A stretch of 34,436 bases of DNA, from positions 1 to 34,436 of the forward strand of contig JAOZPD010000004.1 of NCBI GenBank assembly GCA_029932935.1, in the 5' to 3' direction. The DNA comes from Candidatus Omnitrophota bacterium (GTDB lineage Bacteria; Omnitrophota; Gorgyraeia; Gygaellales; JAHJCI01). Below, piece after piece: positions 268 through 16,526 of this stretch (its first letter is position 1; each line of letters begins with the position of its first letter). A model generated the notes under the pieces. That model did no database searches, was not told the DNA's origin, and saw nothing but the letters and a program-made list of their open reading frames with translations. The translations under genes were made by a program, and so were the position numbers.

Positions 268-389
268 CCATAGCAGATCTCTCTGATTATTCTGATGGCT
301 CGAGTGTAATATCACCTTCATTAAATTAAGAGCCCTCTCTTTCAATCTGCATACAGCTGGACTTTTAATAATATATGCACCCTGGTTTA

Positions 390-836: not shown

Positions 837-852
837 AAAATTTATAATACCG

Positions 853-1263: not shown

Positions 1264-1372
1264 ATCTTTCTTAAAGAGATATTAGCACTAACACCTATTC
1301 CTGATAATAACTTTATATAAATTCTATCATAAAAACTTACTTCAACAAGACAATTCGTATAAATCATTTATT

Positions 1373-1412
1373 AAAAAAATTCCCGCACCTCGAACAAGAA
1401 TCAAGGTGCGGG
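1373..1412 (-). terminator. Rho-independent terminator downstream of the major pilin gene
   Basis: The minus strand reads CCCGCACCU-UGAUUCUUGUUCG-AGGUGCGGG, a 9-bp GC-rich stem (1412..1382). It is followed by AAUUUUUUU (U-run 1379..1373) and lies 46 nt after the pilin stop codon. Confidence 0.85.
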
Positions 1413-1457
1413 GTTAAATCAAGCTAATCTAAACAAGAATACACTCAAAGCAAGACC

Positions 1458-1880
1458 TCAACCGCCACCGCCGCCGCCACCGCCGCCACAGGCAGCAGAT
1501 GTTAAAACCCCTCCGGTCGTAATAGTAAATGTCCTGGTACCGGTGGTGTTGCAGGTCGTAGGAGTAGCTGTACAACTGTATCCAGTAGCTGCTAATGTAC
1601 CGCAGGCAAAGGCATAACCCTGTCTTGCTGAAGCTGTATAATCCTCATTTAGATATGGCGGATTTGCTCCTGTTAAAGTAGCTATTGAAGTAGGATAATT
1701 TCCGTTGTTTGCTGCAGCATAGCTCTCACAAGCAGTGGAGATTGTGCGTAAGGTGGCTTGGGCATTGCTCTCATTAGCATTAACTCGGGCCCTGAGAAGA
1801 TTGGGTATGGCGATTGCCGCTAATAAAGCAACGATTGCCACTACTATCATGATTTCAACCAATGTAAAACCTCTTCTCAT
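1458..1880 (-). CDS. pilA: Major type IV pilin (prepilin) with a C-terminal Gly9 tail
   Basis: 140 aa. MRRG|FTLVEIMIVVAIVALLAAIAIPNLLRARVNANESNAQATLRTIS is a textbook type IV pilin N-terminus. Five Cys lie in the globular domain. An extended SD GAAAGGAGGU sits 8 nt upstream of the ATG. The gene has its own terminator and ends ..AACGGGGGGGGG*. Confidence 0.9.
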   Translation of the reverse strand: MRRGFTLVEIMIVVAIVALLAAIAIPNLLRARVNANESNAQATLRTISTACESYAAANNGNYPTSIATLTGANPPYLNEDYTASARQGYAFACGTLAATGYSCTATPTTCNTTGTRTFTITTGGVLTSAACGGGGGGGGG

Positions 1881-1968
1881 CTTCGCTTACCTCCTTTCCA
1901 AAGGCTGGATTAGACTTGGATTACGCTTAAGTTCGAATAAATTAAGCCTAGAACTATCTGCGCCTGCC

Positions 1969-1994
1969 TTGCCTGTCTGGCACGAAACAGGCAA
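1969..1994 (-). promoter_or_regulatory. Stable hairpin in the pilin 5' UTR
   Basis: UUGCCUGU (1994..1987 on the minus strand) pairs with ACAGGCAA (1976..1969), giving an 8-bp perfect stem with a 10-nt loop. An adjacent imperfect GGCAGGAC/GUCCUUUGCC hairpin lies just upstream. Confidence 0.5.
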
Positions 1995-2038
1995 AGGACA
2001 GAATCAAGTCCTGCCCTTTTTTTTTAAAAACTCACGTT

Positions 2039-2067
2039 CTTATATCACCTCCTTTCTTACTTGTCAA
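2039..2067 (-). promoter_or_regulatory. Sigma70-type promoter candidate for the major pilin gene
   Basis: Minus strand: TTGACA (2067..2062), 17-nt spacer, TATAAG (2044..2039). This predicts a 5' UTR of roughly 150 nt. Caveat: the spacer itself is a perfect SD-like GAAAGGAGGUGA. Confidence 0.5.
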
Positions 2068-2080
2068 GCAAAATCTAACC

Positions 2081-2192
2081 CCGCACCTTTTATCTATTCC
2101 CACAAGATACTCTTTAAATATCTGAAAGGAGCGGAAAAAATTTAACCCCGCTCTTAATATTCCGCGTGATACTCGCAGATATTGACGGGGCT
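2081..2192 (-). promoter_or_regulatory. Two consecutive hairpin + U-run modules (terminator-like/attenuator-like) in the pilin leader
   Basis: Module A: AGCCCCG (2192..2186) pairs with CGGGGUU (2150..2144), with inner AAUAU/AUAUU and CUGCG/CGCGG helices, followed by AAAUUUUUU (2143..2135). Module B: CCGCUCCUUU (2134..2125) pairs with AAAGGUGCGG (2090..2081) at 9 of 10 bp, followed by GGUUAGAUUUUG. GAGCGG in A can alternatively pair with CCGCUC in B. Confidence 0.45.
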
Positions 2193-2194
2193 CA

Positions 2195-2226
2195 CAAAAA
2201 ACCTATTCTCCATTTGAAGAATAGGT
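2195..2226 (-). terminator. Intrinsic terminator forming the expression platform of the GEMM-I element
   Basis: The minus strand reads ACCUAUUCU-UCAAAUGG-AGAAUAGGU, a 9-bp perfect stem (2226..2201), followed by UUUUUU (2200..2195). Confidence 0.8.
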
Positions 2227-2264
2227 TTGCAAAGTATAGTAATCTAAATTAAATATAATACCGC

Positions 2265-2350
2265 TTTCTGGCAACTGGCTACCCTTTGATTTCTCTCCGG
2301 GCCCTATAGCTTTGCGCCCCATCTTTTCAAATGGTTAGCCTTTTCTCCGG
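2265..2350 (-). promoter_or_regulatory. c-di-GMP-I (GEMM-I) riboswitch aptamer
   Basis: The minus strand 2340->2270 reads GGCUAACCAUUUGAAAAGAUGGGGCGCAAAGC...GGGUAGCCAGUUGCC. It matches the recalled Vc2 core GGCAAACCAUUCGAAAGAGUGGGACGCAAAGC at 26/32 positions. Differences inside the GAAA-capped helix are compensatory. The GCAAAGC junction and GGUAGC..GUUGCC 3' strand are conserved. The second hairpin is atypical and I could not fold it by eye. Confidence 0.75.
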
Positions 2351-2421
2351 CTGAGCAATATCAGCTGCGGAATCCCGCCCTAAAGCTTATGGCGGAACAG
2401 AAACGCCTTAATTCTACTTAA

Positions 2422-2449
2422 AGTATAACATGTGACTGTAAATTTTCAA
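2422..2449 (-). promoter_or_regulatory. Sigma70-type promoter with extended -10, driving the riboswitch transcript
   Basis: Minus strand: TTGAAA (2449..2444), 16-nt spacer ending in TGt, TATACT (2427..2422). It lies about 40 nt downstream of the pilC stop codon. Confidence 0.55.
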
Positions 2450-2490
2450 GATAATTGTATTTCTATCCTAACACAGATAATATATTAAGA

Positions 2491-3702
2491 CTAACGACTT
2501 ATCAGCTGCGTTATCTGAAAGATAGGTAAAAATAAGGCAATTACAATACCACCAATAATGATACCCAGGAAGGCAATAACCAACGGCTCAATCATACTGG
2601 TTAAACCCGCAACAGCAGCATCTACCTGCTCATCATAAAAATCGGCAATCTTGGTAAGCATTATTTCCAATTTTCCCGTCTGTTCACCCACGGCAATCAT
2701 TGCTGTAACCATAGGAGGAAAAACACCACTCCTGGTTAAAGGCTGCGCAATCGGTTCTCCCTCACGAACAGAATGCAAGGAATTACTCACCGCCTCCTCT
2801 ACCACCTTATTACCAGATGTCCTTGCCACAATATTCAGTGCATCAAGGATAGACACACCACTCCTGACCAATGTCGAGAGTGTACGGGAAAACTTCGCAA
2901 CAGCTACCTTACGAAAGAGTTCCCCCACAACAGGTAGCTTAAGAGTCATCTTATCAAAATTATATCTTCCTTTATCTGTATTAATATATCTCTTAAAGAG
3001 GAAAACCAGAATAAAAATACCAATAACCACAAAGATAAACATTCTCCTTAACAAATCACTAATCGCAATAAGTATAAGGGTCGGTAACGGCAAATTGCCA
3101 CCCAGCATATCAAATATCCCCTTGAACGTAGGCACAACCTTAAGTAGTAGAACAGCAGTAATCAAGATAGCCATAGTAAGCACAACTGCTGGATAGATAA
3201 GACTTGATTTAACCTTCCTTGTTAAGGCAGCCATTTTCTCCAGATAAGTCGCTATCCTGCCTAAAACGTCATCAAGCATCCCAGATGTCTCTCCTGCACG
3301 CACCATACTAACAAAAAACGTAGAAAACATACGAGGATATCTGGCTAAGCTATCACAGAAACTCAATCCAGACTCTACGTCCTGACGGATCATAAAAACA
3401 ACATTTTTAAGAGCTGGTGCCTCCACCTGATCAATCAATATTCTCAAGGCGCCTACTAAAGGAATACCAGAATCAATCAAGGTAGCCAGCTGGCGAGAAA
3501 AAACAACCAAGTCATCCATTTTCACCCTACCACCGCCTCGCTGTCGCTTAGCAATGGTTTTTTTCTTCGTCAGCTTTACAGAGACTACCGTCAATTCTCT
3601 CTTATGCAACTGTTGTATAACCTCATTCTCATTGGCAGCTTCGATAATACCATTTACTGTCTGTGCAGTTTTATCTTTAGCTGTATATTGGAATGTAGGC
3701 AT
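2491..3702 (-). CDS. pilC: Type IV pilus platform protein PilC (GspF family)
   Basis: 403 aa. It has two T2SS-F repeats (..FSRQLATLIDSGIPLVGAL.. and ..FSRTLSTLVRSGVSILDAL..) and three TM segments. AAGGAG SD sits 6 nt upstream of the ATG at 3702. Confidence 0.93.
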   Translation of the reverse strand: MPTFQYTAKDKTAQTVNGIIEAANENEVIQQLHKRELTVVSVKLTKKKTIAKRQRGGGRVKMDDLVVFSRQLATLIDSGIPLVGALRILIDQVEAPALKNVVFMIRQDVESGLSFCDSLARYPRMFSTFFVSMVRAGETSGMLDDVLGRIATYLEKMAALTRKVKSSLIYPAVVLTMAILITAVLLLKVVPTFKGIFDMLGGNLPLPTLILIAISDLLRRMFIFVVIGIFILVFLFKRYINTDKGRYNFDKMTLKLPVVGELFRKVAVAKFSRTLSTLVRSGVSILDALNIVARTSGNKVVEEAVSNSLHSVREGEPIAQPLTRSGVFPPMVTAMIAVGEQTGKLEIMLTKIADFYDEQVDAAVAGLTSMIEPLVIAFLGIIIGGIVIALFLPIFQITQLISR

Positions 3703-3734
3703 ATTATCTCCTTAACTTATTATCTGCATTTGCT

Positions 3735-5450
3735 TTATTCCTCAGTTGTTATACGTACAGCCTCATCCAGAGTAGTCAACCCCTGTTTTGCCTTCAGTAG
3801 AGCATCGTCACGCAACGTCCTCATACCTTTCTTTTTTATAGCGTATGCCTTGATTTCCTCGAGGGACCCTTTCTTAATAATTAACTGACGGATATAATCA
3901 TCGATCATCAAAACCTCTAACACGGCGATTCTTCCGAAGTAGCCTGTATTATTACAATAGTCACAGCCCTTAGCCTGGTAAAAGGTCGCCTTCTCTTTAA
4001 TTCCCAGCCCCTTAAGAATCTCGCCGGGAGCATCGTATATCTGACGACACTTATTACAAAGTCTTCTACATAGCCGTTGGGCACACGCCATAATTAAACT
4101 GGAGGCCACCAAGAAAGGCTCAATCCCCATATCAATAAGTCTGGTAATACTGGAAGCGGCGTCGTTAGTATGAAGCGTAGAAAGAAGTAATTGTCCGGTT
4201 AAAGCGGCTTTAATAGCGATATCCGCGGTTTCCGAATCACGAATCTCACCCACCATAATTACATCCGGACTCTGACGAAGCACAGAACGCAAACCAGAGG
4301 CAAAATCCAGACCAATCTCATGATGCGCCTGAACCTGAGTAATCCCCTCAATCTCATATTCTACGGGGTCCTCAATAGTAACAATGCTTCTCTCTGGTGT
4401 ATTTAATTGATTTACTATGGAATAAAGGGTTGTAGATTTACCGCTACCTGTCGGTCCAGTTACCAGAATCATACCAAAAGGATGAGCGATTGCCTCTTTG
4501 AATAAACGTAATGGCTCCTCAGAAAATCCTAACTTATCTAACCCCACAGAAAGATTGGATTTATCTAAGGCACGTAAAACAAATTTCTGGCCAAAAGTGG
4601 TAGGTAATGCAGATACTCGAAAATCTATCTCCTTATTCTCTAGGCGTACTTTAAATCTACCATCCTGAGGCAGACGGCTTTCAGTAATATTCATATTAGA
4701 TATTATCTTTAAACGCGCCAATACGGCATTCTGATTTTTCTTGGGTAGTCTCAATACATCGTATAAATCGCCATCGATGCGATAACGGACACGCAAGCAA
4801 TCCTCTTCAGGTTCTACATGAATATCCGAAGACCTCCGCTTTAAAGCCTGTATCAACATCAGATCAACAAGTTTAACGATGGGGGGGGTCTGGCTCTCGC
4901 GTACTGCCTGCGTCAACTCCAATTCTTCGGTCACCTGGACATCTGAAACCATCTCTCTTTCCCCCTCTAACGCCCCCTTAGAAATCTCGCCAAGAATCTT
5001 CTGTAAATCAGCTGCGTCTTTATGATACTGCTTATCTATTGCTGCCCTGATTTCATCCTCAGAACTCAAAACAATATCTATATCGCATCCGGTTAATGTC
5101 TTCAGGTCATCCAGAGCAAAAATATTAAAGGGATCGGTCATTGCTATGGTCATGGTATTCCCCATACGGGAGAGAGGAATAATCCCGTATCTTAGACAAA
5201 TCTGCTCAGGAACCAGTGAAATAACCTTTGGATCAAATTTGTATTTTGCCAGACGCAGAAAAGGCAGATACAGATGTTCCGAGAGAATGGAAAGCAGTTC
5301 CTGTTCAGAGATAATCTTTTCCTTTAATAATAACTGCCTCAGAGACAATTTCTTCCTCTTTTGTAATTGAATCAACTCATCAAGCTTTTCCTTGGGTATA
5401 GATTTATATCTCACCAATATATCGACTAATCTTTCCTTTAAATTTATCAT
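3735..5450 (-). CDS. pilB: PilB/GspE-type assembly ATPase, paralogue 2
   Basis: 571 aa. It has an N-terminal MshEN/T2SSE_N domain, Walker A GPTGSGKST, Asp/His boxes, and a tetracysteine motif CNKC..GCDYC typical of extension ATPases. Confidence 0.92.
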   Translation of the reverse strand: MINLKERLVDILVRYKSIPKEKLDELIQLQKRKKLSLRQLLLKEKIISEQELLSILSEHLYLPFLRLAKYKFDPKVISLVPEQICLRYGIIPLSRMGNTMTIAMTDPFNIFALDDLKTLTGCDIDIVLSSEDEIRAAIDKQYHKDAADLQKILGEISKGALEGEREMVSDVQVTEELELTQAVRESQTPPIVKLVDLMLIQALKRRSSDIHVEPEEDCLRVRYRIDGDLYDVLRLPKKNQNAVLARLKIISNMNITESRLPQDGRFKVRLENKEIDFRVSALPTTFGQKFVLRALDKSNLSVGLDKLGFSEEPLRLFKEAIAHPFGMILVTGPTGSGKSTTLYSIVNQLNTPERSIVTIEDPVEYEIEGITQVQAHHEIGLDFASGLRSVLRQSPDVIMVGEIRDSETADIAIKAALTGQLLLSTLHTNDAASSITRLIDMGIEPFLVASSLIMACAQRLCRRLCNKCRQIYDAPGEILKGLGIKEKATFYQAKGCDYCNNTGYFGRIAVLEVLMIDDYIRQLIIKKGSLEEIKAYAIKKKGMRTLRDDALLKAKQGLTTLDEAVRITTEE

Positions 5451-5537
5451 CGCTATTTTATATTATATACCCTATTTTTTCTCATCGGATAACTATGTCA
5501 TCAAACAAAATAACATTATTCTACAGTATTTACGGAA

Positions 5538-7241
5538 TCAGGCAGCGGTTACACGTAGAACCTCTTCCAGTGAAGTCTCTCCCTGCAAGGCAAGTGCAAG
5601 CGCATTTTCTCTTAATGTCTTCATACCTTCTCTGCAGGCCAACTGCTTAATCTGGAGTTCCTCTGCTCCAGATAAAATCAAATTTTTTATATCGGAAGAA
5701 AGTAATAATACCTCAGCGATTCCCAATCTTCCTGAATAACCCGTTTTAAAACAATACTTACACCCTAAGGGACGATAAAATGCGGAATGCGAAACCCCAG
5801 ATAAATCCAACCGCTTAATCATCTCTTTATTAAGCTCGTACCTTTCTTTACATTTAGGACATAATCTACGCACTAACCTCTGAGCAACCACACAAATAAG
5901 AGAAGAGGTAATCAAGTAAGGTTCCACCCCCATATTCACTAAGCGTACAATCGCACCACTTGAGGTAGTAGTATGCAAAGTAGAAAGTACCAAATGTCCT
6001 GTAAGTGCACTTTTAATGGCGATATCCACAGTCTCGAAATCGCGTATCTCGCCAATCATAATTACATTAGGATCCTGTCTCAGGATAGAGCGTAATGCTG
6101 AGGCAAAGGTAAGCCCAATATCGGGCTTTATGGTCACCTGATTTATACCTTCCAGCTGAAATTCCACCGGGTCTTCAACTGTAACGAGGTTCTTCTGCGG
6201 AGAATCTATAAATTTAAGAATAGAGTATAATGTAGTAGTTTTGCCGCTACCAGTGGGACCGCAGACCAATATCATTCCATGAGGAGCAGAGGCTGCCTTT
6301 TTTAATTTGGCTACACTTGAATCATCAAAACCTAATTTATCCACATCTAATGATGCTTGAGATTTATCCAGAATCCTTATCGCTGCCTTCTCCCCCTGAC
6401 TGGAGGGAAGTATCGAAACGCGAAAATCAACGAACCTATTCTGAATTCTTACCTTAAATCTACCATCCTGTGGCAATCTATGTTCTGCAATATCCAACTC
6501 AGATAACACCTTTATACGCGAAATAAGCAAAGGATGCATTGATTTAGGAGGAGCTTCTTGTTCGCGAAGAACACCGTCTATACGGAAGCGTATCCTCAAA
6601 CTTTCAGGCATCGGTTCAATAAGGATATCGGATGCCTTTTTCTTAATCGCCTCCTCTAAAATCATATTTGTCAATCGAATAGCCGGGCCCTGCCTACTGG
6701 CAAGACCCAGCTCCTGGTCACTCAGTGTATCCCTCTTCTTTTCCTGAATCAGTTCTATCTTGGACTCACTAATCTCATCGAGAAGCTCCTCTATTATACC
6801 GGTGGTTGTATCCGGATAAAACTGATCAATTGCCTGGATAATCTGATCGGTAGTTGATATAATGGGATTTATCTGAAAACCGGTTAGATTGCGTAAAGCA
6901 TCTATGGCAAAGATATTCAATGGATCTGCCATAGCAATGGTGAGTGTATCACCCATCTGTGAGATAGGAATTATTTGATAATGGTAACAAATCTTAGCTG
7001 GTATAATGCTTAATACATCTGCATCTATTTTAATTCTTTTAAGGTCTATAAGCGGTAGTCCTAATCCTTCGCTTAAGGCAAAGGCAAGGTCGTTTTCTTT
7101 AACGAAACCCAAATCTACAATTATCTTACTTAATCGACCACCCTTAGTCTTCTGGATTTCTAAAGCCTGAGCCAACTGCTGGCGAGTAATAAGCTTGTTA
7201 TCGATTAATATCTCTGTAAGTCTTTCTTTTAAAGAAGTCAT
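5538..7241 (-). CDS. pilB: PilB/GspE-type assembly ATPase, paralogue 1
   Basis: 567 aa. The N-terminal MshEN domain has two 24-residue motifs separated by exactly 5 residues (RLTEILIDNKLITRQQLAQALEIQ-KTKGG-RLSKIIVDLGFVKENDLAFALSEG). It also has Walker A GPTGSGKTT and tetracysteine CPKC..GCKYC. Confidence 0.92.
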   Translation of the reverse strand: MTSLKERLTEILIDNKLITRQQLAQALEIQKTKGGRLSKIIVDLGFVKENDLAFALSEGLGLPLIDLKRIKIDADVLSIIPAKICYHYQIIPISQMGDTLTIAMADPLNIFAIDALRNLTGFQINPIISTTDQIIQAIDQFYPDTTTGIIEELLDEISESKIELIQEKKRDTLSDQELGLASRQGPAIRLTNMILEEAIKKKASDILIEPMPESLRIRFRIDGVLREQEAPPKSMHPLLISRIKVLSELDIAEHRLPQDGRFKVRIQNRFVDFRVSILPSSQGEKAAIRILDKSQASLDVDKLGFDDSSVAKLKKAASAPHGMILVCGPTGSGKTTTLYSILKFIDSPQKNLVTVEDPVEFQLEGINQVTIKPDIGLTFASALRSILRQDPNVIMIGEIRDFETVDIAIKSALTGHLVLSTLHTTTSSGAIVRLVNMGVEPYLITSSLICVVAQRLVRRLCPKCKERYELNKEMIKRLDLSGVSHSAFYRPLGCKYCFKTGYSGRLGIAEVLLLSSDIKNLILSGAEELQIKQLACREGMKTLRENALALALQGETSLEEVLRVTAA

Positions 7242-7251
7242 ATTCTATTTA

Positions 7252-7695
7252 TTATTTATGGTAATATTTCTCAATTGCCCTACGGATATCTCCAGATGTA
7301 CTTACAAATATTTGGACCTTACAGCCAGTGAGTTTCTCAAGTTTCTCAATTGCCTCATTATCTAAGGGATTACTCATGGCAACACTCAAGCTTTTGCTTA
7401 ATCTATCGACAGGCATACATAAATATTGTTTAGCTATCTCACAAGGGACCATCTCGACAACCTCAGAATCAATCTCATAGCTATCCAAGGGTAAATAAGG
7501 AAATCCATACTGGGCGGTTAATGCTTGGGCAATATCTTCCTCTTTAGCAAATCCCATCTCAACCAGTATTTCTCCTATTAACCCACCCTGCTCTTCCTTG
7601 ATAGAAAGGGCCTTCTGGAACTGCTCCGGAGTAATTATCCGCCTTTCAATAAGAATCTCCCCCAACAACTTATTAACGATTTTTCTTAACGGCAT
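7252..7695 (-). CDS. Stand-alone MshEN / GspE N-terminal domain protein (no ATPase domain)
   Basis: The ORF track gives 7252..7749 with a GTG start. The internal ATG at 7695 (MPLRKIVNKLLGEILIERRIITPEQFQKALSIK-EEQGG-LIGEILVEMGFAKEEDIAQALTAQ..) is the more likely start. The whole protein aligns with the first ~145 aa of the two PilB paralogues and then stops. Confidence 0.8.
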   Translation of the reverse strand: MPLRKIVNKLLGEILIERRIITPEQFQKALSIKEEQGGLIGEILVEMGFAKEEDIAQALTAQYGFPYLPLDSYEIDSEVVEMVPCEIAKQYLCMPVDRLSKSLSVAMSNPLDNEAIEKLEKLTGCKVQIFVSTSGDIRRAIEKYYHK

Positions 7696-7960
7696 ATCTA
7701 TTATCTTCCATCCTTTCTCTATCAAAACTATACTTGTTATAACTACCACAGCGAGGACAAACAGAGATTTCTGTCCTATGGGTAGTAAAATAGGTATATG
7801 TACAAATACTGCAACACCAGATAAATCTTGGACTTAGACTTAAAAAACTACCAAAAGAATCCTCCTCTCTTAGAAAAATCCACAAACAAAACACTACACC
7901 CAGAAGAATCAATAGATATAAAGACAGGGCTATAGAAAAATCAATCTTTACCATATACAT
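7673..7960 (-). CDS. Small membrane-anchored zinc-ribbon protein (hypothetical)
   Basis: 95 aa. It has one N-terminal TM helix (FSIALSLYLLILLGVVFCLWIF), then CSIC-x14-CPRC. The start codon overlaps the upstream stop as TAATG (7962..7958). The 3' end overlaps the next gene by 23 nt. Confidence 0.55.
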   Translation of the reverse strand: MYMVKIDFSIALSLYLLILLGVVFCLWIFLREEDSFGSFLSLSPRFIWCCSICTYTYFTTHRTEISVCPRCGSYNKYSFDRERMEDNRYAVKKNR

Positions 7961-8622
7961 TATGGGGTCAAATCAATCTTTACAACTCGCGAAGAGCCGC
8001 TGGTGAAATTTGCCTTACAAAGATTAAGGAAATGAGTCAGATTCCTCATAATCAAAAGGTCCACCTCAGGATTCCCGGATGAAATCTTTCTCTTGATTAC
8101 GTCAATCCTTCCCTTGGGAGAAATACAGAAAGCCACCTCCATATGAGCAGTTTGACGATCCTTAAAATATAAAAGAAAATGATACGGCATCGATGGATAA
8201 AACATTATACTCGACTCACCCTTTTTTAGCTTGAGTGTAGGTGAAGGCTCAAGGTATAAGATCTTATCATCCCTTAGATTAGGTAAGGAGGGTTTATTAA
8301 ACTCAGACTTAGAAAGATGAATCAAATATGGCTGTGGCACTTGAGTTAACCCCTGTGCTTTACTCAATGTACCAAGCGCATTGGTCCTGCATAGAAATAC
8401 AACTCTCGATGTCCCTGATGCAAAATTACTTCTTTTAATCGAATCTCGGGTATAATCTGATTTTGTAAATATGGGCCCCAGGAAGAAGACATTATAAAAA
8501 TTATAACTGTCTTCTGCATCTATTCTCTTGCCAAAGGTAAGTTTTACACTACTAAAACAAAATATATGACAAAATAAAGAGATAAATATAGTGAATTTTA
8601 AACCTGTTTTAGCAAACCGCAA
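7960..8622 (-). CDS. TonB/TolA-like energy-transducer candidate (N-terminal anchor, TonB_C-like C-terminus, no Pro-rich linker)
   Basis: 220 aa. TTG start at 8622, preceded by GGAG 6 nt upstream. N-terminal hydrophobic anchor LKFTIFISLFCHIFCF. The C-terminal MEVAFCISPKGRIDVIKRKISSGNPEVDLLIMRNL resembles the TonB C-domain pattern (v.f.I...G.v.....SSG...lD). It sits directly after ExbB-ExbD. Confidence 0.55.
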   Translation of the reverse strand: MRFAKTGLKFTIFISLFCHIFCFSSVKLTFGKRIDAEDSYNFYNVFFLGPIFTKSDYTRDSIKRSNFASGTSRVVFLCRTNALGTLSKAQGLTQVPQPYLIHLSKSEFNKPSLPNLRDDKILYLEPSPTLKLKKGESSIMFYPSMPYHFLLYFKDRQTAHMEVAFCISPKGRIDVIKRKISSGNPEVDLLIMRNLTHFLNLCKANFTSGSSRVVKIDLTP

Positions 8623-8624
8623 AA

Positions 8625-9026
8625 TTACTCCTGATATGTAGCGATATTCACTTGAGATAACCCAAACTCTCTAGCCATATCCCAAATCTCAACCACTCTA
8701 CCTAATTGTGCCCGGCGGTCAGCCTTAATCAACAATGGTTGACTGCGAGCAGCCAACCTTTCAAAAATAGACTTCAGCTCTCGAATATTTACTACCCTAC
8801 CATCAAGATATATAACATTCTCTCCAGAAACTACTATTTCTACCGTTCTTGTTCTAACCATCTGACTGGTAACTGCCTTAGGTAGATTGACCCTAACCGC
8901 TGAGGGCACAATGAAGCTGGATGTGAGCATAAAGAATATCAATAATTGGAAGATTACATCTACCAATGGAGCAATATCAATTTGCCTTAATCCATGCTCT
9001 AATTCTATATGGCGTTTAAACCGCAT
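8625..9026 (-). CDS. ExbD/TolR family biopolymer transport protein
   Basis: 133 aa. The motif ..IDIAPLVDVIFQLLIFFMLTSSF.. with the conserved TM Asp (VD) matches the typical ExbD/TolR architecture. Confidence 0.9.
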   Translation of the reverse strand: MRFKRHIELEHGLRQIDIAPLVDVIFQLLIFFMLTSSFIVPSAVRVNLPKAVTSQMVRTRTVEIVVSGENVIYLDGRVVNIRELKSIFERLAARSQPLLIKADRRAQLGRVVEIWDMAREFGLSQVNIATYQE

Positions 9027-9031
9027 ATATA

Positions 9032-9643
9032 TTACTCAGTCAAGAAATTAACTAATTCAGTAGAAACCCGTTCCATCTCCAATATAAAACTGTTTATCCG
9101 ACTAACCAGATAATTATAAACTACAAATGCTGGTATAGCAACAACTAATCCAGCTACGGTGGTCAACAACGCCTCCCATATGCCACCAGCCAAATCCCCC
9201 GGAGAAACTACCTGTAATGCAGTAGATTTCGTCTGGATTATTTGAAAGCAGCGCACCATCCCTACTACTGTCCCCAATAATCCCAATAGAGGCGAGATAT
9301 GGGCAATTGTAGCTAAAGCAGTCATATTTCTTTCCAGATGAGGTTCCTCATATAACACAGCATCCTCAATAGCCTCTTTAATCTGCTGACGCCCCCGATC
9401 ATACTTGAGGATTCCCGCCTTTAGAATCCTGGAGATGGGGTTCTGTTTTTTTTCGCAAATCTCCAAGGCCTCCTTTATTTGATGTCGTTTCATTCTCTCT
9501 AATATCCGATTTAAGAATTGATGCGTATCTATCTGTATTCTCCATAGATACCAAATGCGTTCAATAATTATAGCCAGGGCCAATATAGAACAGAACAATA
9601 TCGGCCACATCAACGGACCACCCTTTAAAAATATCTGCCACAT
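9032..9643 (-). CDS. MotA/TolQ/ExbB family proton channel
   Basis: The ORF track starts at GTG 9649. ATG 9643 (MWQIFLKGGPLMWPIL..) has AAAGGAG 8 nt upstream. Three TM segments, and the conserved C-terminal ..GGIWEALLTTVAGLVVAIPA.. motif. Confidence 0.9.
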   Translation of the reverse strand: MWQIFLKGGPLMWPILFCSILALAIIIERIWYLWRIQIDTHQFLNRILERMKRHQIKEALEICEKKQNPISRILKAGILKYDRGRQQIKEAIEDAVLYEEPHLERNMTALATIAHISPLLGLLGTVVGMVRCFQIIQTKSTALQVVSPGDLAGGIWEALLTTVAGLVVAIPAFVVYNYLVSRINSFILEMERVSTELVNFLTE

Positions 9644-9743
9644 ATCCACAACTCCTTTGTCGTTCTTTGTTGTTTCTTATTCTACAATAAACAATTCTGT
9701 TGCGAAATATCAACTATTATATTTTAAAATCTCACCCACCTTC

Positions 9744-12260
9744 TCAGTTTGATTTATGCGGCAGGATAATCCCCTGCGAATCGATCCACTCCAATCTCTC
9801 TCTTGCATATTTGGATTCCGCCACATTCATCGAGGCAACCTTCAGATAGATGTCTCTTGCCTTAAGAAAATCCTCGTGATTCTCATAAATCTGAGCACCG
9901 CTCAAATAGGCCTTAACAACCAACCTGGAATCTGCTGGATACAGATAAGGTATCTTAAGATACTCCTCAATGGCCTGTAAATAATCTCCCTTTTGTTCAT
10001 ATGCACGGGCAATCTTAAACTGTAATTTAGATGCTTCTCTCATAGAAGCCAGTGACAATGCCTTATGATAGAACTGAATAGCTTGTTCAAAATCTCCCCT
10101 TTTTTCGTAAACGCGTGATATCTTTGGATAAATCAAACTGGCTAATGTTGGTGTTTTTTCTATTGCCTCCTGATAAACACGCTCGGCATCATCCAGCTTA
10201 TCCTGATCAACCAAAATATCAGCAATCGCAATACTGGCCTGCGATACTAAATCCCGAGAGCCCACCTTCATCGCCTCTTTAAAATTAGCAATTGCTGACT
10301 CCAATTTACCCTCCTCTTGGTCAAGGATACCCAAGGCATAATATCCATCGGCTATCAGACTGCTTTTAGGAAAGTCGGTTATGAGAGTAGAAAAATAGCG
10401 CCTGGAAAGCTTAAGCTCTCCTTTGCGGAAATAATATCCCCCTAACCACCACGTTACCTCTGGGCTTAGAGTGGAATCGGGATATTTAGCCCGTAAAACC
10501 TTAAATCCCTGTAAGGCCTCTTTCTCCTTGCCCATTTGATACAAACAATCAGCAATTTCATACTCGGCCTTCTGAACTATCTTTATATCCTCGGCCTTGC
10601 GTATCACCTGCCTAAAAACGCCTATTGCTTCTGAGAATTTACCCAGATTATATAAACTTGTTGCCAATAGATACAAGGCGTCAACCTCCAATTCTTTATT
10701 TTTTAAATCTGGCGCATATTTCTCCAGAATATCAACACATCCTGAATAGTCCTGTCGCTGAAATAATCCCAATGCTAAGCTATAGATGGTTTCCGTCTTG
10801 AGTTTTGAATTAGGAAAATTAAGCAATAATGTTCTAAAACAAAGAATTGCCTCATCATATTTAGAGGAACGCAGACAGGCAAGCCCTAATTGATACTGCA
10901 CATAGTCTAAATAGAAACTATCTGGGTAATCCTTGAGTATCTGATCATAAACCTGAATCGCCTTATCATACTCTTCGGCATCCTGATAGGTATCTCCTAT
11001 CTGACACAAAGCAGCCACTTTGATAATCTCATCTGAAGCAAATGAGGCCGCTTTTTGAAATTCAGCAATTGCCTCTTTAAATTGACCGTTCTTCAAGAAT
11101 GCCCAAGCTAACCCATAATATAATTTATCCAATAAATGAGATGGTAATCCCTCTGTTATCTCCTTTGCCTCATGATAAACAGCGATGGCTTCCAGATATT
11201 TACCTGAGTTGTAGAATGCCTCGGCAAGCCCAAGATAGGCCTGCATCTTCTCCTGAGCGCCAGAGGCAATCTTACATAGCTCTGACCAGGCATCCGCCGC
11301 TGAGGAAAAATCCTCTATCTCGGTAAATAAATTAGCCTTAGCCAGAAGTAAAGCCTCTCGCTCTTTATTGGTTAAATCATAAGGATTTATAAGTTCTAAC
11401 AACTCCTGGGCCTTAGCATATTTCTTCAATCTAAGATAACACCAGGCAAGACCAAGACGAGAGAGAGCCACTATGTTTGATTCTGTAGCGTTATCCAGGG
11501 CTATCCGATATTGCTTAATTGCCTCCTGATAATCATTTAGATAAAAATGACATTCACCTAATAAGAAATTAATAGAGCCCGCATAGGCATTGTCTTTAGC
11601 GTATTTCTTTTGGAAGGCATTAATCTCTTTCTTTAGTTCTTCATAATTCTTCAAATGATATAAACATTCTAGAATTTTAAATTGGGCATCTTGTGTTAGG
11701 CGCTGAAGAGGAAAATTATTAACTATCTTATTGAAATCCTCCACTGCCTTATTATATTCTCCTAATTCAAATAAACACCAGCCACGTGAATAAAGAGCGT
11801 GAGCAAGAAGTTTAGACTGAGGAAACTCCTCAATAATTCTCTCATAAAAAGAAAGGGCTCTCTTAAAATCCTTTCCACGAAAATGCACCTCTCCTATCCA
11901 ATAAAGAACCCTGTCTTTTAAATCTGAGATTTTGGGATCAGACAACAATCGCTCTAATTCGGCAAGGGCTACAATGAACTTCTTCTGCTGAAAGTAGCAT
12001 TGAGCAATGTAGAGGTTTGCCTCAGCTACCTTCTCACTCTGAGGAAAATTCTTTAAGAAGCGCTCAAAAAGACTCTCGGCAACTTCATAGAAGCCATCCT
12101 CATAAGCCTTCTTTGCTACATAGAGAGCCTCCTCTTCGGGGGTAACGGTATCAACAGATGGTTGCTCTGCCGCCAGTAAGGATTGCTCATCTGTTGGAAT
12201 ACAAACAAAAGAAAGCAATATAAGAAATATAATAATCAGCCATTTCATACTAACAGTCAT
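9744..12260 (-). CDS. Secreted/periplasmic tetratricopeptide-repeat protein (YbgF/CpoB-like TPR units, >15 repeats)
   Basis: 838 aa. Signal peptide MKWLIIIFLILLSFVC, so the alternative start at 12248 is likely. The rest shows a continuous 34-residue TPR periodicity (..A.Y.lg.cy...g.y.eAi..f..). Confidence 0.85.
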   Translation of the reverse strand: MTVSMKWLIIIFLILLSFVCIPTDEQSLLAAEQPSVDTVTPEEEALYVAKKAYEDGFYEVAESLFERFLKNFPQSEKVAEANLYIAQCYFQQKKFIVALAELERLLSDPKISDLKDRVLYWIGEVHFRGKDFKRALSFYERIIEEFPQSKLLAHALYSRGWCLFELGEYNKAVEDFNKIVNNFPLQRLTQDAQFKILECLYHLKNYEELKKEINAFQKKYAKDNAYAGSINFLLGECHFYLNDYQEAIKQYRIALDNATESNIVALSRLGLAWCYLRLKKYAKAQELLELINPYDLTNKEREALLLAKANLFTEIEDFSSAADAWSELCKIASGAQEKMQAYLGLAEAFYNSGKYLEAIAVYHEAKEITEGLPSHLLDKLYYGLAWAFLKNGQFKEAIAEFQKAASFASDEIIKVAALCQIGDTYQDAEEYDKAIQVYDQILKDYPDSFYLDYVQYQLGLACLRSSKYDEAILCFRTLLLNFPNSKLKTETIYSLALGLFQRQDYSGCVDILEKYAPDLKNKELEVDALYLLATSLYNLGKFSEAIGVFRQVIRKAEDIKIVQKAEYEIADCLYQMGKEKEALQGFKVLRAKYPDSTLSPEVTWWLGGYYFRKGELKLSRRYFSTLITDFPKSSLIADGYYALGILDQEEGKLESAIANFKEAMKVGSRDLVSQASIAIADILVDQDKLDDAERVYQEAIEKTPTLASLIYPKISRVYEKRGDFEQAIQFYHKALSLASMREASKLQFKIARAYEQKGDYLQAIEEYLKIPYLYPADSRLVVKAYLSGAQIYENHEDFLKARDIYLKVASMNVAESKYARERLEWIDSQGIILPHKSN

Positions 12261-12293
12261 TTTAACATTATTGATTCATCATTTCAATTCCTT

Positions 12294-15113
12294 TTACCTG
12301 TGCCGCAGAGATATTCTTAGAAATTGAGCCGTATAGGACTGCTTTGACTTAATTATATCCTCCGGACTTCCACAAGCAACAATCCTTCCGCCTGCATCTC
12401 CTCCCTCAGGTCCCAGGTCTATAATATAATCGGCACATTTAATAACCTCCAAATTATGCTCAATAACGATTACAGTATTACCTTTGTCTACCAATCTCTG
12501 TAATACCGATAACAATTTTTCCACATCTGCAAAATGGAGCCCTGTGGTTGGTTCGTCCAATATGTATAGTGTGCGACCGGTGGAGCGTTTGCCCAATTCA
12601 GAAGATAATTTCACGCGCTGCGCCTCGCCTCCGGAAAGCGTAGTAGCAGATTGCCCTAATTGAATATAGCCTAAACCTACACCATATAGACAGTCTAATA
12701 TATTCTTTATTCTGGGTATATCATAAAACAGATTGATTGCCTCCTCTACAGTCATCTCTAAAACATCTGCAATGGATTTACCCTTGTATTTAATCTCTAA
12801 AGTCTGTTCGTTAAACCTGCGCCCTTTACAGATGTCACAGGATACATAGACATCCGGTAGGAAATGCATCTCAATCCTTTTAATACCGTCTCCCTGACAG
12901 GCTTCGCATCTACCACCTTTAACGTTGAAGGAAAACCTGCCGGGCTTAAACCCACGCATTCTTGCCTGAGGGAGCCGACTAAAGATATCACGAATATAAC
13001 TGAAGACACCTGTATATGTCGCAGGGTTAGAACGTGGCGTTCGCCCAATTGGCGATTGATCTACTACAACAACCTTATCAATAAATTCAGTGCCAACTAT
13101 TCTTTTATGCGCACCTGGTTTTAGACGGCTTTTATATAACCTCTGTGCCAACCCGCGATAGAGGATCTCATCAACAAGAGTGGACTTTCCTGAACCAGAA
13201 ACACCAGTCACACAGATAAATACACCCAAGGGAAAACGTACATCTATTCCCTTCAAATTATGCTCGCTGGCACCCTTAACCTCTAAGAAATGCCTGTTCT
13301 GCCAAGCCCTTCTATTAGGAGGTGGTTCTATTCTGAGTTCTCGGCGTAGATATTTAGCAGTTAAAGAATCTGATTGTTGCAACAGACCACTTAAACTACC
13401 AGAGAATATTACTCTACCACCATGCCGACCGGCACCTGGACCTAAATCGACAATAAAATCAGCTGCTTTTATAGTCGCTTCATCATGTTCAACTACAATC
13501 AAAGTATTGCCCAGGTCTCTCAATGCCTCTAATGTATTCAATAGTCGCCGGTTGTCTCTCTGGTGCAATCCAATACTTGGTTCATCTAAAGCATAAAGTA
13601 CACCAACCAATCCAGACCCAACCTGAGTAGCCAATCTTATCCTCTGGGCCTCACCTCCAGAAAGGGTAGAGCTTCTTCTGTCTAAAGTAAGGTAATCCAG
13701 TCCAACATTTATACAAAAATTAAGCCTGTTTATTATCTCTTTCAAGATCTGACCGGCAATTAGCTTTTGTCTGGCAGTCAACTCTAAGTTTTCAAAAAAT
13801 ATCTTTGCTTTCCCGATGGTCAATTGAGTTACCTCATAGATATTACGTCCATCTAATAACACTGCCCTTGCCTCTTTCTTCAATCGCATACCCCCACAGT
13901 CAGAACAGGGAAGCGCGGACATAAACCGAGTAATTTCTTCCTTTAGATAGTTACTGTCAGTCTGATGGAATAATCTCTCCAGATGAGGAATAACCCCCTC
14001 AAAAGGCTTTCCCCAGACTAAAACATCCGGGGCTCCATAAAGTATACTCTTTTGCTGGCTGGATTTTAATTTACCAAAAGGGATATCTAGATCAATATCT
14101 GTCTGTTCGGCAAACTCTCGTATCAGGCTGCGGTAATAAAGAATATATCCCCGTCCACCCCTCCTCCATGGTTCAATTGCACCTTCATTTATAGACTTAT
14201 CCTTGTCGGGAATTACTAAATCTGGATCAAATTCTAATCTTGTACCTAAACCGTTACAGGTAGGGCAGGCACCGTAAGGAGAATTGAAAGAGAAGATTCT
14301 CGGCTCAACCTCACTATAACTTATTCCGCACTCAACACAAGCATATTGTTCACTAAAAATCATATCTGAGCTGCCCTGGGGATAATGCCTATTATCTGTA
14401 AGAGAGATTACTACTGTACCCTTACCTATCTTCAGTGCCGTCTCTACAGAATCGGCCAGACGACTCTTTATCTCTGGTTTTATCGTTAATCTATCTACAA
14501 TCACATCGATATTATGGATTTTATATCTCTCTAATCTAATCTCATCCCCGACTTCGTATATTTTTCCATCCGCACGGAATCGAACAAATCCTGCCTTCTG
14601 AATCTGCCTTCCAATATCACGATACTGTCCTTTTTTGCCACGTATTAAAGGGGCTAATATTGTAATCTGTGTATCCCTGGGCAGATCCAATAATCTATTT
14701 ACTATCTCCTGAGAGGTCTGGCGTCTTATTGGGCGACCACATCTGTAACAATGCACTACTCCTATACGAGCAAAAAGCAATCGAAGATAATCATAAATCT
14801 CTGTCTGCGTCCCTACTGTAGAACGAGGATTCCCTCCTGCAGTCCTCTGTTCAATAGCAATAACGGGAGATAAGCCCTGGATATACTCCACATCTGGCTT
14901 TTGAAGCTGTTCCAAGAACTGCCGGGCATAAGCAGAAAGGCTCTCCATATAACGACGTTGCCCCTCAGCATATATTGTGTCAAAAGCTAAACTAGATTTT
15001 CCAGAGCCGGAGAGGCCTGTAATAACAATGAGCTTATTGCGTGGCAGTTCAAGATTTATATTTTTAAGATTATGTTCGCGTGCACCCCGAATAACTATCT
15101 TGTCGTTCAGCAT
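12294..15113 (-). CDS. uvrA: Excinuclease ABC subunit A
   Basis: 939 aa. [13 protein letters not shown]-terminus, two ABC ATPase modules ([25 protein letters not shown]), LSGGEAQR signature twice, and zinc-finger Cys clusters. Confidence 0.98.
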
Positions 15114-15121
15114 AATTTTTT

Positions 15122-15150
15122 ATTATATCAAAGAGAGAGGCCCCTGTAAA
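15122..15150 (-). promoter_or_regulatory. Near-consensus sigma70 promoter abutting the uvrA start codon (predicts a leaderless or near-leaderless mRNA)
   Basis: Minus strand: TTTACA (15150..15145), 17 nt, TATAAT (15127..15122). Only 8 nt separate the -10 from the ATG at 15113, and there is no SD. Confidence 0.5.
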
Positions 15151-15198
15151 TTATCCGCCTTCTCTGGACATACAGGACAGATAAACTCTACAGGGGCC
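15139..15198 (-). repeat. 10-bp GC-rich inverted repeat / long stem-loop between the 81-aa gene and uvrA
   Basis: GGCCCCTGTA (15139..15148) pairs with TACAGGGGCC (15189..15198). An inner UUAUC/GAUAA helix extends it. The left arm overlaps the predicted uvrA -35. It could be a terminator of the upstream gene or an operator. Confidence 0.5.
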
Positions 15199-15322
15199 AC
15201 AGTAACTCTCCACATGGAGTCCAGCTACTATTTTATAACAATATTTTATAACTGGAGCCCATTATGCATGAGACGGTTTCTTCACTCTATATCTTTAACT
15301 TCTTCTACTTATGTAAGTTATG

Positions 15323-15568
15323 TTATCTCTTTTTCTTTCTTTTCTTGCCGCCTCTTTTCATTTTGACACAGGAAACATCACCCTGTTTGTCAATAAAGTA
15401 AAGATAACCCTCTTTTCTTTTTATTCCGCACTTGGCTACCTTTGTGGGGCTGCCTCCTTTAGATTTACCGCGTGCCATTTTAGCGCAAGAGACATCGCCC
15501 TTCTTATCCAAGTAATAAAGGTAACCCTTCTTTCTTTTGATGCCTAACTTTACTACCTTCTGGGCCAT
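15323..15568 (-). CDS. Small, highly basic protein built from two ~35-aa tandem repeats (hypothetical)
   Basis: 81 aa. Repeat 1 is [30 protein letters not shown]; repeat 2 is [30 protein letters not shown]. Lys/Arg-rich linker and tail (GGKKRKKKR). A 12-nt SD GAAAGGAGGUGA sits 6 nt upstream of the ATG. Confidence 0.7.
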
Positions 15569-15704
15569 ATTGTCTCACCTCCTTTCTCTACTGACTGATT
15601 TTTTAGAGTTATCACTTTCTACTACATCCTATTTAACTGGAAGATGCATACTATTGTTGCATTTCCTATTTCGATTAAAAGAACGCGATACTCGGAAATC
15701 TTAC

Positions 15705-16526
15705 CTACGTTCCCACCTTTAGTGGTCGCAGAATCTGCCTCAAGACTGCAATTGCCGAAAGAACAGCCAAGAAACTTGTCCTTGGATTATGAGGATGTAA
15801 TAAATTCTCAACCCTACTCGATATCTTACCAGCATCAGACTCAATATAAACCTCGTGGATGTTTCTTTTTACCATAGGAGAAGCCACGATCTTAACCCGT
15901 GTCTTCGATCGTCCAATACCAGCAATACTCAATGTGGCAGCAACATTAATATTCTGGGGAAATAACCTAATTGCCTGACGAGCATTACCAGAAAACAGCA
16001 CGGTATCCCTTTTAATCTTATCAAGCCTTATTCCTCTCTTTCTTATATACTCTGTATCCTTAAAAGACCTGGGATTCTTACGAGTGGTAAGGATTATCTT
16101 TTTTACTTTATTATGAGATACCGCCTTTAGGGAATCAACACCACAAATTGCTCCACTGGGGATATAAATATGCGCATTTTTTCTCTCAGCTAAAGTCTCT
16201 AATTGCTTGACGTGGTCAATTATTCCGCCTACACTCATAATAATAATATCTCGCCCCTTCCTCAGAACCCTCTTGGCGATAGAAAGACAACTGCCTGCAT
16301 CTGCGGCCTCTATTACTAAATTAGTCTTCTCTATCAAATGTTCTAAGGAACAACATACTACTGTCCTGGCCTTTAATTTCTTAGCTAAATAAGATGCCCT
16401 GTTCTCTTTGATATCGTATAAAGCTGTTAATTCTGCCTGGTTAGCAAAATTGCTCACTATCGCTTTTGCCAGAGAAGTCCCTATCGCTCCGCAACCAACA
16501 ATTCCTATCTTCAGTTTATTAATCAT
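15705..16526 (-). CDS. nadX: L-aspartate dehydrogenase
   Basis: 273 aa. Rossmann motif IGIVGCGAIG. The C-terminal half (..PSGAICGVDSLKA.., ..FPQNINVAATLSIAG.., ..NIHEVYIESDAGKIS.., ..NPRTSFLAVLSAIAVLR..) closely parallels the Thermotoga TM1643-type aspartate dehydrogenase. Confidence 0.85.
   Translation of the reverse strand: MINKLKIGIVGCGAIGTSLAKAIVSNFANQAELTALYDIKENRASYLAKKLKARTVVCCSLEHLIEKTNLVIEAADAGSCLSIAKRVLRKGRDIIIMSVGGIIDHVKQLETLAERKNAHIYIPSGAICGVDSLKAVSHNKVKKIILTTRKNPRSFKDTEYIRKRGIRLDKIKRDTVLFSGNARQAIRLFPQNINVAATLSIAGIGRSKTRVKIVASPMVKRNIHEVYIESDAGKISSRVENLLHPHNPRTSFLAVLSAIAVLRQILRPLKVGT

Follow-up and report, generated by a model that had tools for sequence, protein, structure and literature searches.

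A divergent, putative Ton/Tol-type motor module conserved beside type IVa pilus genes in Omnitrophota

The window analysed here is the whole 34,436-nt stretch of contig JAOZPD010000004.1 (GCA_029932935.1, Candidatus Omnitrophota bacterium), in which the genes of a putative proton-driven motor of the Ton/Tol type lie directly next to genes for type IV pilus assembly. Every gene called across it is on the minus strand, as are all features of the window given below, and the GC skew is negative all along. The motor module begins with the gene of an 838-amino-acid (aa) tetratricopeptide repeat (TPR) protein (9744-12260), recognised by the TPR families of Pfam, and continues with an ExbB/TolQ-type proton channel (9032-9649, 205 aa, PF01618), an ExbD/TolR-type stator subunit (8625-9026, 133 aa, PF02472), a TonB/TolA-like transducer (7960-8622, 220 aa) assigned by an anchor motif and its predicted fold, and a 95-aa protein (7673-7960) combining a transmembrane helix with a four-cysteine zinc ribbon; the last two match no family model. 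Next come a stand-alone MshEN protein (7252-7695, 147 aa, PF05157), which is a predicted receptor of cyclic di-GMP (c-di-GMP), two assembly ATPases with T2SSE and MshEN domains, PilB1 (5538-7241, 567 aa) and PilB2 (3735-5450, 571 aa, 47% identical to PilB1), and the platform protein PilC (2491-3702, 403 aa, two T2SSF domains). A sequence-only reading of this stretch had seen here a composite envelope machine, in which a proton-motive-force stator is co-expressed with or coupled to the pilus, with plain adjacency in a packed, co-oriented genome as the alternative. Open reading frame (ORF) coordinates and Pfam confirm its gene identities, order, co-orientation and coordinates, and its spacings from the TPR gene to pilC are exact on recomputation (94, 5 and 2 nt, a 1-nt overlap, a 23-nt overlap, then 10, 87 and 32 nt). 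Between its two proposals, plain adjacency fits better, and we favour with moderate confidence a picture of two separate modules lying side by side, an autonomous Ton/Tol-type transducer of the proton-motive force and a pilus block.

The two stator proteins belong to well-defined families. The ExbB-like protein scores 113 bits against PF01618 (cutoff 22.9) and the ExbD-like protein 96.9 bits against PF02472; the latter has a single transmembrane helix with the essential aspartate D23, within IAPLVDVIFQLL (read from the translation). Against the more specific NCBIfam models, the channel reaches 117.6 bits for TolQ (TIGR02796, cutoff 221) and 81.3 bits for ExbB, also under its cutoff, and the small subunit 59 bits for TolR (TIGR02801, cutoff 127.3). 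In the PDB, the channel is about equally distant from ExbB and TolQ chains (E = 2e-13 to 3e-9), as is the small subunit from ExbD and TolR. With a median identity of 72% to its relatives, ExbB is about as conserved as the DNA-repair protein UvrA (73%), whose gene lies just upstream of the module.

For the 220-aa protein, neither Pfam nor NCBIfam gave a match, and hhalign aligned the family profile with the C-domain of E. coli TonB (an approximate query) over 13 columns only, at a probability of about 1%. An alignment of 35 homologues shows S15 and H19 to be invariant in the N-terminal helix, which is the S-x3-H signature, together with a variable linker that is not proline-rich and a highly conserved stretch of the last 85 residues. 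Compared with all PDB sequences, the family profile matches the anchor region of E. coli TolA (E = 0.0018). The AlphaFold2 model places a helix-strand-strand-helix-strand fold at residues 147-218, with block means of the predicted local distance difference test of 80-90 from about residue 160, and the Foldseek search of this C-domain against the PDB returned TonB-family C-domains (TonB, HasB, FusB) for 13 of the 14 top matches and TolA domain III for the remaining one, all of them weak (E = 0.05-0.6, target TM-scores 0.31-0.57). The family counts 231 strong representative clusters among 1.84 billion representatives, with listed members of about 195-245 aa, and appears compact and lineage-restricted among the matches listed. 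By its anchor motif, its profile match to the TolA anchor and the weakly scoring fold of its C-domain, the protein is a predicted short and divergent transducer of the TonB/TolA type. The label "TonB_C-like" given to it in the sequence-only reading thus finds no backing in any sequence model (Pfam, NCBIfam, hhalign), and agrees with the fold, at weak scores, and with the anchor motif.

The TPR protein is built of repeated YbgF/CpoB- and BamD-like TPR modules. It reaches 269.7 bits for tol_pal_ybgF (TIGR02795, cutoff 90.1), a score summed over 10 repeat stretches, and 169 bits for BamD, and other TPR models score too. Its Sec-type signal peptide, already noticed from the sequence, is kept in the homologues, in which no lipobox is conserved. 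We also considered a pilotin of the PilF/PilW/Tgl type and rejected it, as the corresponding models score far below their cutoffs and the lipobox is not conserved. The zinc-ribbon protein has no match in Pfam or NCBIfam; its family is defined by the transmembrane helix and the pattern W-x-C-x2-C-x-YTY...CPRC-x-YN, conserved in 77 homologues.

To place the window among its relatives, we compared 80 loci found by a homologue scan, one genome per species of related Omnitrophota, and annotated these from called ORFs, compared by BLASTP with the proteins of the window and the pil genes of one of these loci, L034. The series ExbB-ExbD-TonB-like-zinc ribbon is unbroken in all 80 wherever the flank allows, and wherever the flank is long enough the zinc-ribbon gene comes next after the TonB-like gene, which it overlaps by a median of 8 nt: it is a constant fourth gene of the motor core. 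Upstream, uvrA and the TPR gene are found in 51 of 52 loci with enough flank. Pilus-related genes lie downstream in 59 of 63, in two different arrangements; the exceptions (L011, L013, L024, L036) have unrelated genes after the zinc ribbon and an intact motor core, with the TPR gene seen upstream in L011, L024 and L036. The majority order runs panC, aspartate dehydrogenase, a small basic protein, uvrA, TPR, ExbB, ExbD, TonB-like and zinc ribbon, then a winged helix-turn-helix (wHTH) protein (DUF2582), a pilin-like gene, a gap of about 400 nt, an HTH_17 gene, a PilM-PilN fusion, PilO, a PilP-like gene, the PilQ secretin (which carries an STN domain in this main clade), PilB, PilC and pilins. 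No TonB-dependent receptor was detected within 10 kb of the motor in the 80 loci, in which most flanking genes were matched only against window and pilus proteins. Breakpoints occur exclusively after the zinc ribbon (in the four exceptions and in the window's own clade) or before ExbB, in L057. This last locus, the one exception on the upstream side and the sole locus separating the TPR gene from the core, has a ribosomal-protein operon running into ExbB (1-9331) without TPR or uvrA, and represents either a real rearrangement or an assembly chimera. The conservation of gene order, put forward in the sequence-only reading as a check, holds as far as the motor beside pilus genes is concerned, but the test does not discriminate, as the uvrA-panC side is equally conserved.

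The spacings tell the same story. In the window, uvrA (12294-15113, 939 aa, UvrA domains), which we used as a control for packing and order, lies 33 nt from the TPR gene; across the species, the median gaps are 27 nt for uvrA-TPR (54 species), 33 for TPR-ExbB, 14 for ExbB-ExbD, -1 for ExbD-TonB-like, -8 for TonB-like-zinc ribbon, 69 for zinc ribbon-wHTH, -8 for wHTH-pilin-like and about 400 for pilin-like-pilMN. A gene for DNA repair thus sits as close to the motor module as any gene on the downstream side. Co-oriented tight packing is the norm in the genome of the window, and where genes are so densely packed in one orientation and synteny is so high, neither close spacing nor conserved order can count as evidence of shared function, uvrA and mreBCD being linked as tightly. 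A crude scan for hairpins followed by T-runs found terminator-like sites in 16 of 18 junctions between aspartate dehydrogenase and uvrA, 3 of 54 between uvrA and TPR, 9 of 59 between zinc ribbon and wHTH, and 20 of 51 gaps before pilMN. The HTH_17 gene lies directly upstream of pilMN and overlaps its start in 47 of 51 loci, and the gap before pilMN in L034 holds a near-consensus promoter-like site (TTGACA-17-TTAAAT) and the 66-aa HTH_17 gene. Because of the gap of about 400 nt, this promoter-like site, the terminator-like sites and the HTH gene at its head, pilMNOPQ-pilB-pilC looks like a transcription unit of its own in most species. At the start of this region, the wHTH and pilin-like genes overlap, as does the stop of the HTH_17 gene (excisionase-type, 66 aa) with the start of the fused pilM-pilN; the wHTH/pilin pair and HTH_17 gene lie at 10947-11592 and 11793-11993 in L034, and at 11029-12065 in L084/L085.

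Within the window itself, the scan gave no convincing terminator between 12260 and 2491, with one weak match inside exbD, in agreement with the sequence-only reading. The only strong terminator in the first 16 kb (1412-1382; a 12-bp stem with 8 G-C pairs, then a T-run) comes after the first pilin gene. The consensus promoter scan performed at chance level (43 sites found, 41.8 expected), and we set aside its weak matches within the gaps of 94 and 87 nt. The two best sigma-70-like matches of this chance-level scan on the minus strand lie upstream of uvrA (15122-15150, 11/12, TG) and at the start of the TPR gene (12259-12287, 10/12, TG). The second overlaps the annotated ATG of the TPR gene and suggests that the true start may be the second methionine (MKWLIII...).

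The pilus block of the window differs from the one that follows the motor in most species. PilB1 scores 635.6 bits for type_IV_pilB of NCBIfam, just under the cutoff of 675, and has a median identity of 45% (43-48%) to the motor-adjacent PilB of other species (38% for PilC). Among themselves, the PilBs next to the motor in the main clade share 67-97% identity, against 40-48% with the window's two PilBs. With PilB1 as the query, a large number of proteins from Omnitrophota were retrieved at 66-70% identity, and in all four of the more distant genomes examined (L082, L086, L087, L088) these proteins are encoded in a series consisting of mreB, mreC, mreD, PBP2, rodA, radical SAM, GGDEF, MshEN, PilB, PilB, response regulator/HD and PilC. 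In L082, this string (447-15719) is tight and co-oriented and followed by an rRNA operon; the mre-locus pilus block has no pilins or PilMNOPQ beside it, and is packed against the cell-shape genes just as tightly. The window's proteins are 63% (MshEN), 68% (PilB1), 67% (PilB2) and 67% (PilC) identical to those of the L082 mre locus, the last value comparing with 38% for the motor-adjacent PilC of L085. The mre-block species have motor-adjacent PilB and PilC proteins as well, 46% and 38% identical to those of the window, and one mre-type block appears to share a 215-kb contig with a homologue of the TonB-like protein. In L001 and L002, two loci with TonB-like proteins that rank among the nearest to that of the window, the zinc ribbon is followed by two pilin genes and housekeeping genes, with no PilB block at the site. 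The string zinc ribbon-MshEN-PilB-PilB-PilC is confined to a small clade (L003-L005, L007, L008 and the window). Since its orthologues (63-68%) sit at the mre locus in four of four genomes, motor-adjacent PilB and PilC are dissimilar, and L001 and L002 lack the block, the sequence comparison identifies the MshEN-PilB-PilB-PilC genes of the window as a lineage-specific relocation of a block found elsewhere at the mreBCD-rodA-GGDEF locus, the GGDEF and HD genes apparently having been left behind.

Having a PilB-type ATPase, a PilC platform and pilins with the N-methylation motif, the window encodes parts of a type IVa pilus system, and several features link it to c-di-GMP. The c-di-GMP motif NF053729 of NCBIfam (cutoff 38 bits) scores 59.4 in the stand-alone MshEN protein, 58.5 in PilB1 and 25.7 in PilB2, so that of the two ATPases PilB1 alone looks c-di-GMP-responsive as judged from this motif. 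A c-di-GMP-I riboswitch aptamer (2267-2350, Rfam RF01051; 57.7 bits, gathering score 35) occupies the leader of the major pilin gene, on the side towards pilC. RF01051 is found at the same position in L007 (6793-6875, 64.9 bits) and L008 (7267-7392, 56.2 bits); it was not found in L004, in L034 and L047 (the two main-clade loci scanned), or in L001, L003 and L082. The candidate for the major pilin, pilA1 (1458-1880, 140 aa), has the N_methyl motif and ends with a run of nine glycines, the strong intrinsic terminator lying immediately 3' of it. Three further pilin-like genes follow: a second (853-1263, 136 aa, recognised in translation), a third (390-836, 148 aa, N_methyl motif) and a partial fourth (1-267) that starts near 267 (MREGG|FSLTEMIVVVF...) and runs off the low end.

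As this fourth gene leaves the window, the pilus locus continues past it. Of the loci from close relatives, L004 extends furthest downstream, and there PilM, a PilN-like gene and PilO come after the pilins. Domain searches found no TonB-dependent receptor, TolB, Pal, PilMNOPQ, PilD or PilT encoded in the 34.4 kb, as the sequence-only reading had stated. For PilM, PilN and PilO, given the truncated pilin-like gene and the order in L004, this probably reflects the position of the window's edge. Exact-protein look-ups past the low end returned no record for pilA3 and, for pilA1, only a 1.5-kb contig. Elsewhere, the window holds genes for aspartate dehydrogenase, panC, folK, dap and arg genes, rpsI/rplM, recJ and a fragment of argS. 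Between the aspartate dehydrogenase gene and uvrA, a basic 81-aa protein (15323-15568) shows an internal duplication of about 35 aa (GIKRK.GYLY..DK.GDVSC.KM.RG); tblastn gave 38 matches in the related loci, the top dozen being 76-94% identical and located in the upstream flank.

We also asked which of the proteins evolve together, using an exploratory and crude partial Mantel test on pairwise distance matrices, controlled for the mean of the other proteins, over the 31 species with all 14 proteins. ExbB and ExbD co-vary strongly (partial r = 0.74, one-sided p = 0.0005), and the TonB-like protein co-varies with either of them (partial r = 0.33-0.34, p < 0.01), with the zinc-ribbon protein (0.25, p = 0.014) and with the TPR protein (0.23, p = 0.01). 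Among the same 31 species, its partial r is 0.13 with PilQ (p = 0.13) and about 0 with PilP, PilMN, the pilin-like protein and PilB; ExbB and ExbD give r of about 0 with PilQ and at most 0.13, not significant, with Pil proteins. The Pil proteins co-vary with one another and also with UvrA, and because of the latter we take their co-variation to be species signal. The wHTH protein co-varies with PilMN, PilB and PilC and not with the motor. Co-variation and breakpoints agree in that the motor core is a unit of its own.

A single operon of the motor and MshEN-PilB-PilB-PilC, as the composite envelope machine would require, is not supported, because the block lies elsewhere in four of four genomes and is absent from the site in L001 and L002, because most species have a pilMNOPQ-pilB-pilC unit that looks separately promoted, and because uvrA is equally tight; what stands of that proposal are its gene identities and the motor lying beside pilus genes in 59 of 63 loci. 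In the reading with two adjacent modules that we favour, the ExbB/TolQ-like channel and the ExbD/TolR-like subunit with its transmembrane aspartate would form a stator driving the short TonB/TolA-like protein through the S-x3-H anchor. The conserved C-terminal domain of the latter would span the periplasm and grip a partner, probably by strand pairing as in TonB and TolA. The secreted CpoB/BamD-like TPR protein would be a periplasmic scaffold, and the membrane-anchored zinc ribbon would sit at the stator's cytoplasmic face. Since the stator matches UvrA in conservation and the cluster includes a TPR protein with YbgF-like modules, the most likely job of this motor would be a Tol-like housekeeping function in the outer envelope, the gene of its partner lying elsewhere. 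The second module would be a c-di-GMP-controlled type IVa pilus block, consisting of the MshEN receptor, two PilBs, PilC and riboswitch-controlled pilins. In this lineage it has moved from the mreBCD-rodA-GGDEF locus to the site after the motor, a site that ancestrally borders the main pilus locus, and the two modules would work without being coupled.

Several observations weigh against this reading. The TolQ and TolR scores lie under the equivalog cutoffs of NCBIfam, and no TolB or Pal was detected near the motor in the 80 loci, most of whose flanking genes were compared only with window and pilus proteins. In the available portions of the KEGG Orthology (KO) lists of two other Omnitrophota genomes, whose relation to the window's lineage is not established and which serve as context only, K03641, K03640, TolQ, TolR and TolA are absent, so that TolQRAB and Pal are missing there and a classical Tol-Pal mechanism is unproven. 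On the side of the pilus, the two arrangements in which its genes follow the motor in 59 of 63 species could reflect selection for proximity, and a small interaction surface would escape the co-variation test. In the window's clade, the zinc-ribbon and MshEN genes overlap or nearly abut (a 23-nt overlap in the window, gaps of 6-75 nt in five relatives) with no terminator-like hairpin between them, and are therefore likely co-transcribed. Finally, there is a precedent for a Ton-like complex needed for type IV pili, the PocAB-TonB3 system ("polar organelle coordinator") of Pseudomonas aeruginosa, which is reported to be required for pilus production and placement, with a suggested contact of TonB3 with the N0 domain of PilQ (PMC5285504).

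These points raise the question of whether the motor could be a dedicated pilus accessory like PocA-PocB-TonB3, the proton gradient serving to place, gate or stabilise the type IVa pilus machine, and the TonB-like C-domain possibly engaging the N0/STN domain of PilQ or a minor pilin, which would be the reason for the genes to stay adjacent. Besides this precedent (PMC5285504) and the pilus genes directly downstream in 59 of 63 loci, such a role would account for the pilin-like gene and its wHTH partner after the zinc ribbon, at a median of 69 nt and with a terminator-like hairpin in only 9 of 59 junctions, for the overlap of the zinc-ribbon and MshEN genes in the window's clade, and for the absence of a detected TonB-dependent receptor near the motor. 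The STN domain of the main-clade secretin also fits, but STN/N0 domains are ordinary in secretins and not specific evidence. Yet uvrA is linked to the motor as tightly and constantly as the pilus genes are, L011, L013, L024 and L036 combine an intact motor core with unrelated downstream genes, and the PilB-PilB-PilC block of the window is located elsewhere in other genomes; moreover, the motor and Pil proteins do not co-vary, and ExbB is far more conserved than the Pil proteins. We consider a pilus accessory unlikely on balance, though worth keeping in mind. Slightly less probable still is the more far-reaching idea that the proton-driven stator, with its short, family-specific TonB-like arm, zinc ribbon and giant TPR scaffold, is built into the type IVa pilus apparatus of this lineage, as a counterpart of PocAB-TonB3 wired in at the level of the genome. 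The C-domain, working on the secretin or on a minor pilin, would then control the placement, gating or retraction of the host-attachment pili of these ultra-small cells, and the membrane zinc ribbon may receive cytoplasmic c-di-GMP or MshEN signals.

TPR proteins occur as accessories in some TonB2-type clusters, and the module could also be an ordinary Ton import system, energising TonB-dependent transporters encoded elsewhere, with the TPR protein as an accessory. The order exbB-exbD-tonB-like is the classic Ton order, and the fold matches are overwhelmingly TonB-family C-domains, with a single TolA domain III among the 14. The available portions of the KO lists of the two other Omnitrophota genomes also hold a K02014 receptor, iron ABC transporter genes, ExbB, ExbD and TonB, but the KO-annotated TonB of these genomes, presumably canonical, could serve their receptors without the protein described here. 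Given further that the latter has neither a TonB_C sequence signature nor a proline-rich spacer, that no receptor was detected within 10 kb in the 80 loci, and that known Ton systems lack a constant zinc-ribbon or giant TPR partner, we regard an import function as doubtful. The sequence-only reading had pointed to myxobacterial gliding; a motor of this kind, like the Agl-Glt system of Myxococcus, would use a TolQR-like stator to drive surface motility via envelope proteins of the TPR and TonB-like types. The module does combine a stator resembling TolQ/TolR with a TonB_C-like and a TPR protein, and the last matches GltE (34.5 bits) and GltC (32.3 bits) of NCBIfam weakly, but these scores are far below the cutoffs of 225 and 450 and reflect generic TPR similarity, which is the sole support for such a motor; no other Glt-like genes were detected in the window or the 80 loci, and there is only one ExbD-type gene. 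The analogy is not borne out, and a gliding motor seems highly improbable here.

According to Seymour et al. (PMC10066038), nearly all Omnitrophota have type IVa pili, frequently next to an F-type ATPase, and these pili are thought to be central to a host-attached lifestyle; term searches of that paper found no mention of TonB, ExbB, TolQ or Tol-Pal. In a 2026 preprint on complete Omnitrophota genomes (bioRxiv 10.64898/2026.06.07.730766), genes with TonB domains appear only as neighbours of giant genes. We found no prior description of this motor module or of its place beside the pilus locus in the Omnitrophota literature searched; what is new is a divergent Ton/Tol-type motor with constant zinc-ribbon and giant CpoB-like TPR partners, conserved beside a pilus locus. 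Should this motor be Tol-like, the module may replace the Tol system, considering that the KO lists of the two genomes, as far as available, lack TolQ, TolR, TolA, TolB and Pal, and its novel parts would be the membrane zinc ribbon, the 838-aa TPR protein with about ten CpoB-like modules, and a TonB/TolA-like arm that escapes all sequence models. If it works with the pilus, it would provide a natural example, spanning dozens of species, of a type IVa pilus that stays together with a Ton-like motor, and the unexplained effect of PocAB-TonB3 on pili would become directly testable.

Compared with the Tol core (TolQ-TolR-TolA with CpoB/YbgF), the module has the same order of channel, aspartate-bearing subunit and S-x3-H transducer, a transducer profile matching the TolA anchor, a predicted periplasmic TPR protein in the cluster whose repeats, in sum, score as YbgF-like, and a stator as strongly conserved as expected of a housekeeping envelope function. 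It differs from Tol in that no TolB or Pal was detected nearby in any locus and the TolQ and TolR scores stay under their cutoffs, in that the transducer (only about 210 aa) is without the long helical domain II of TolA, in that the 838-aa TPR protein, with its roughly ten YbgF-like modules, is encoded upstream of the stator and not at the operon end, and in the extra gene for the membrane zinc ribbon. With ExbB-ExbD-TonB it shares the gene order, the Pfam families, the stator aspartate and the S-x3-H anchor, and the predicted fold of its C-domain has its best, though weak, matches among TonB C-domains; unlike this system, it has no TonB_C sequence match, no proline-rich spacer and no neighbouring TonB-dependent transporter, and keeps constant TPR and zinc-ribbon partners. 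The poc genes of P. aeruginosa are not known to be strung together with pilMNOPQ-pilBC. PocA-PocB-TonB3 resembles the module as a set of ExbB/ExbD/TonB-like proteins tied to type IVa pili and not to import, a link that is genomic here (59 of 63 loci) and genetic in Pseudomonas (PMC5285504). No zinc-ribbon or giant TPR partner has been described for Poc. The pilus block, for its part, resembles c-di-GMP-controlled type IVa pili in its MshEN-bearing PilB, its PilC, its pilins with the N-methylation motif and its c-di-GMP-I riboswitch before the pilin gene. It departs from them in its two PilB paralogues and stand-alone MshEN protein, and in that the block sits, in related genomes, at the mre locus with GGDEF and HD-type genes of its own.

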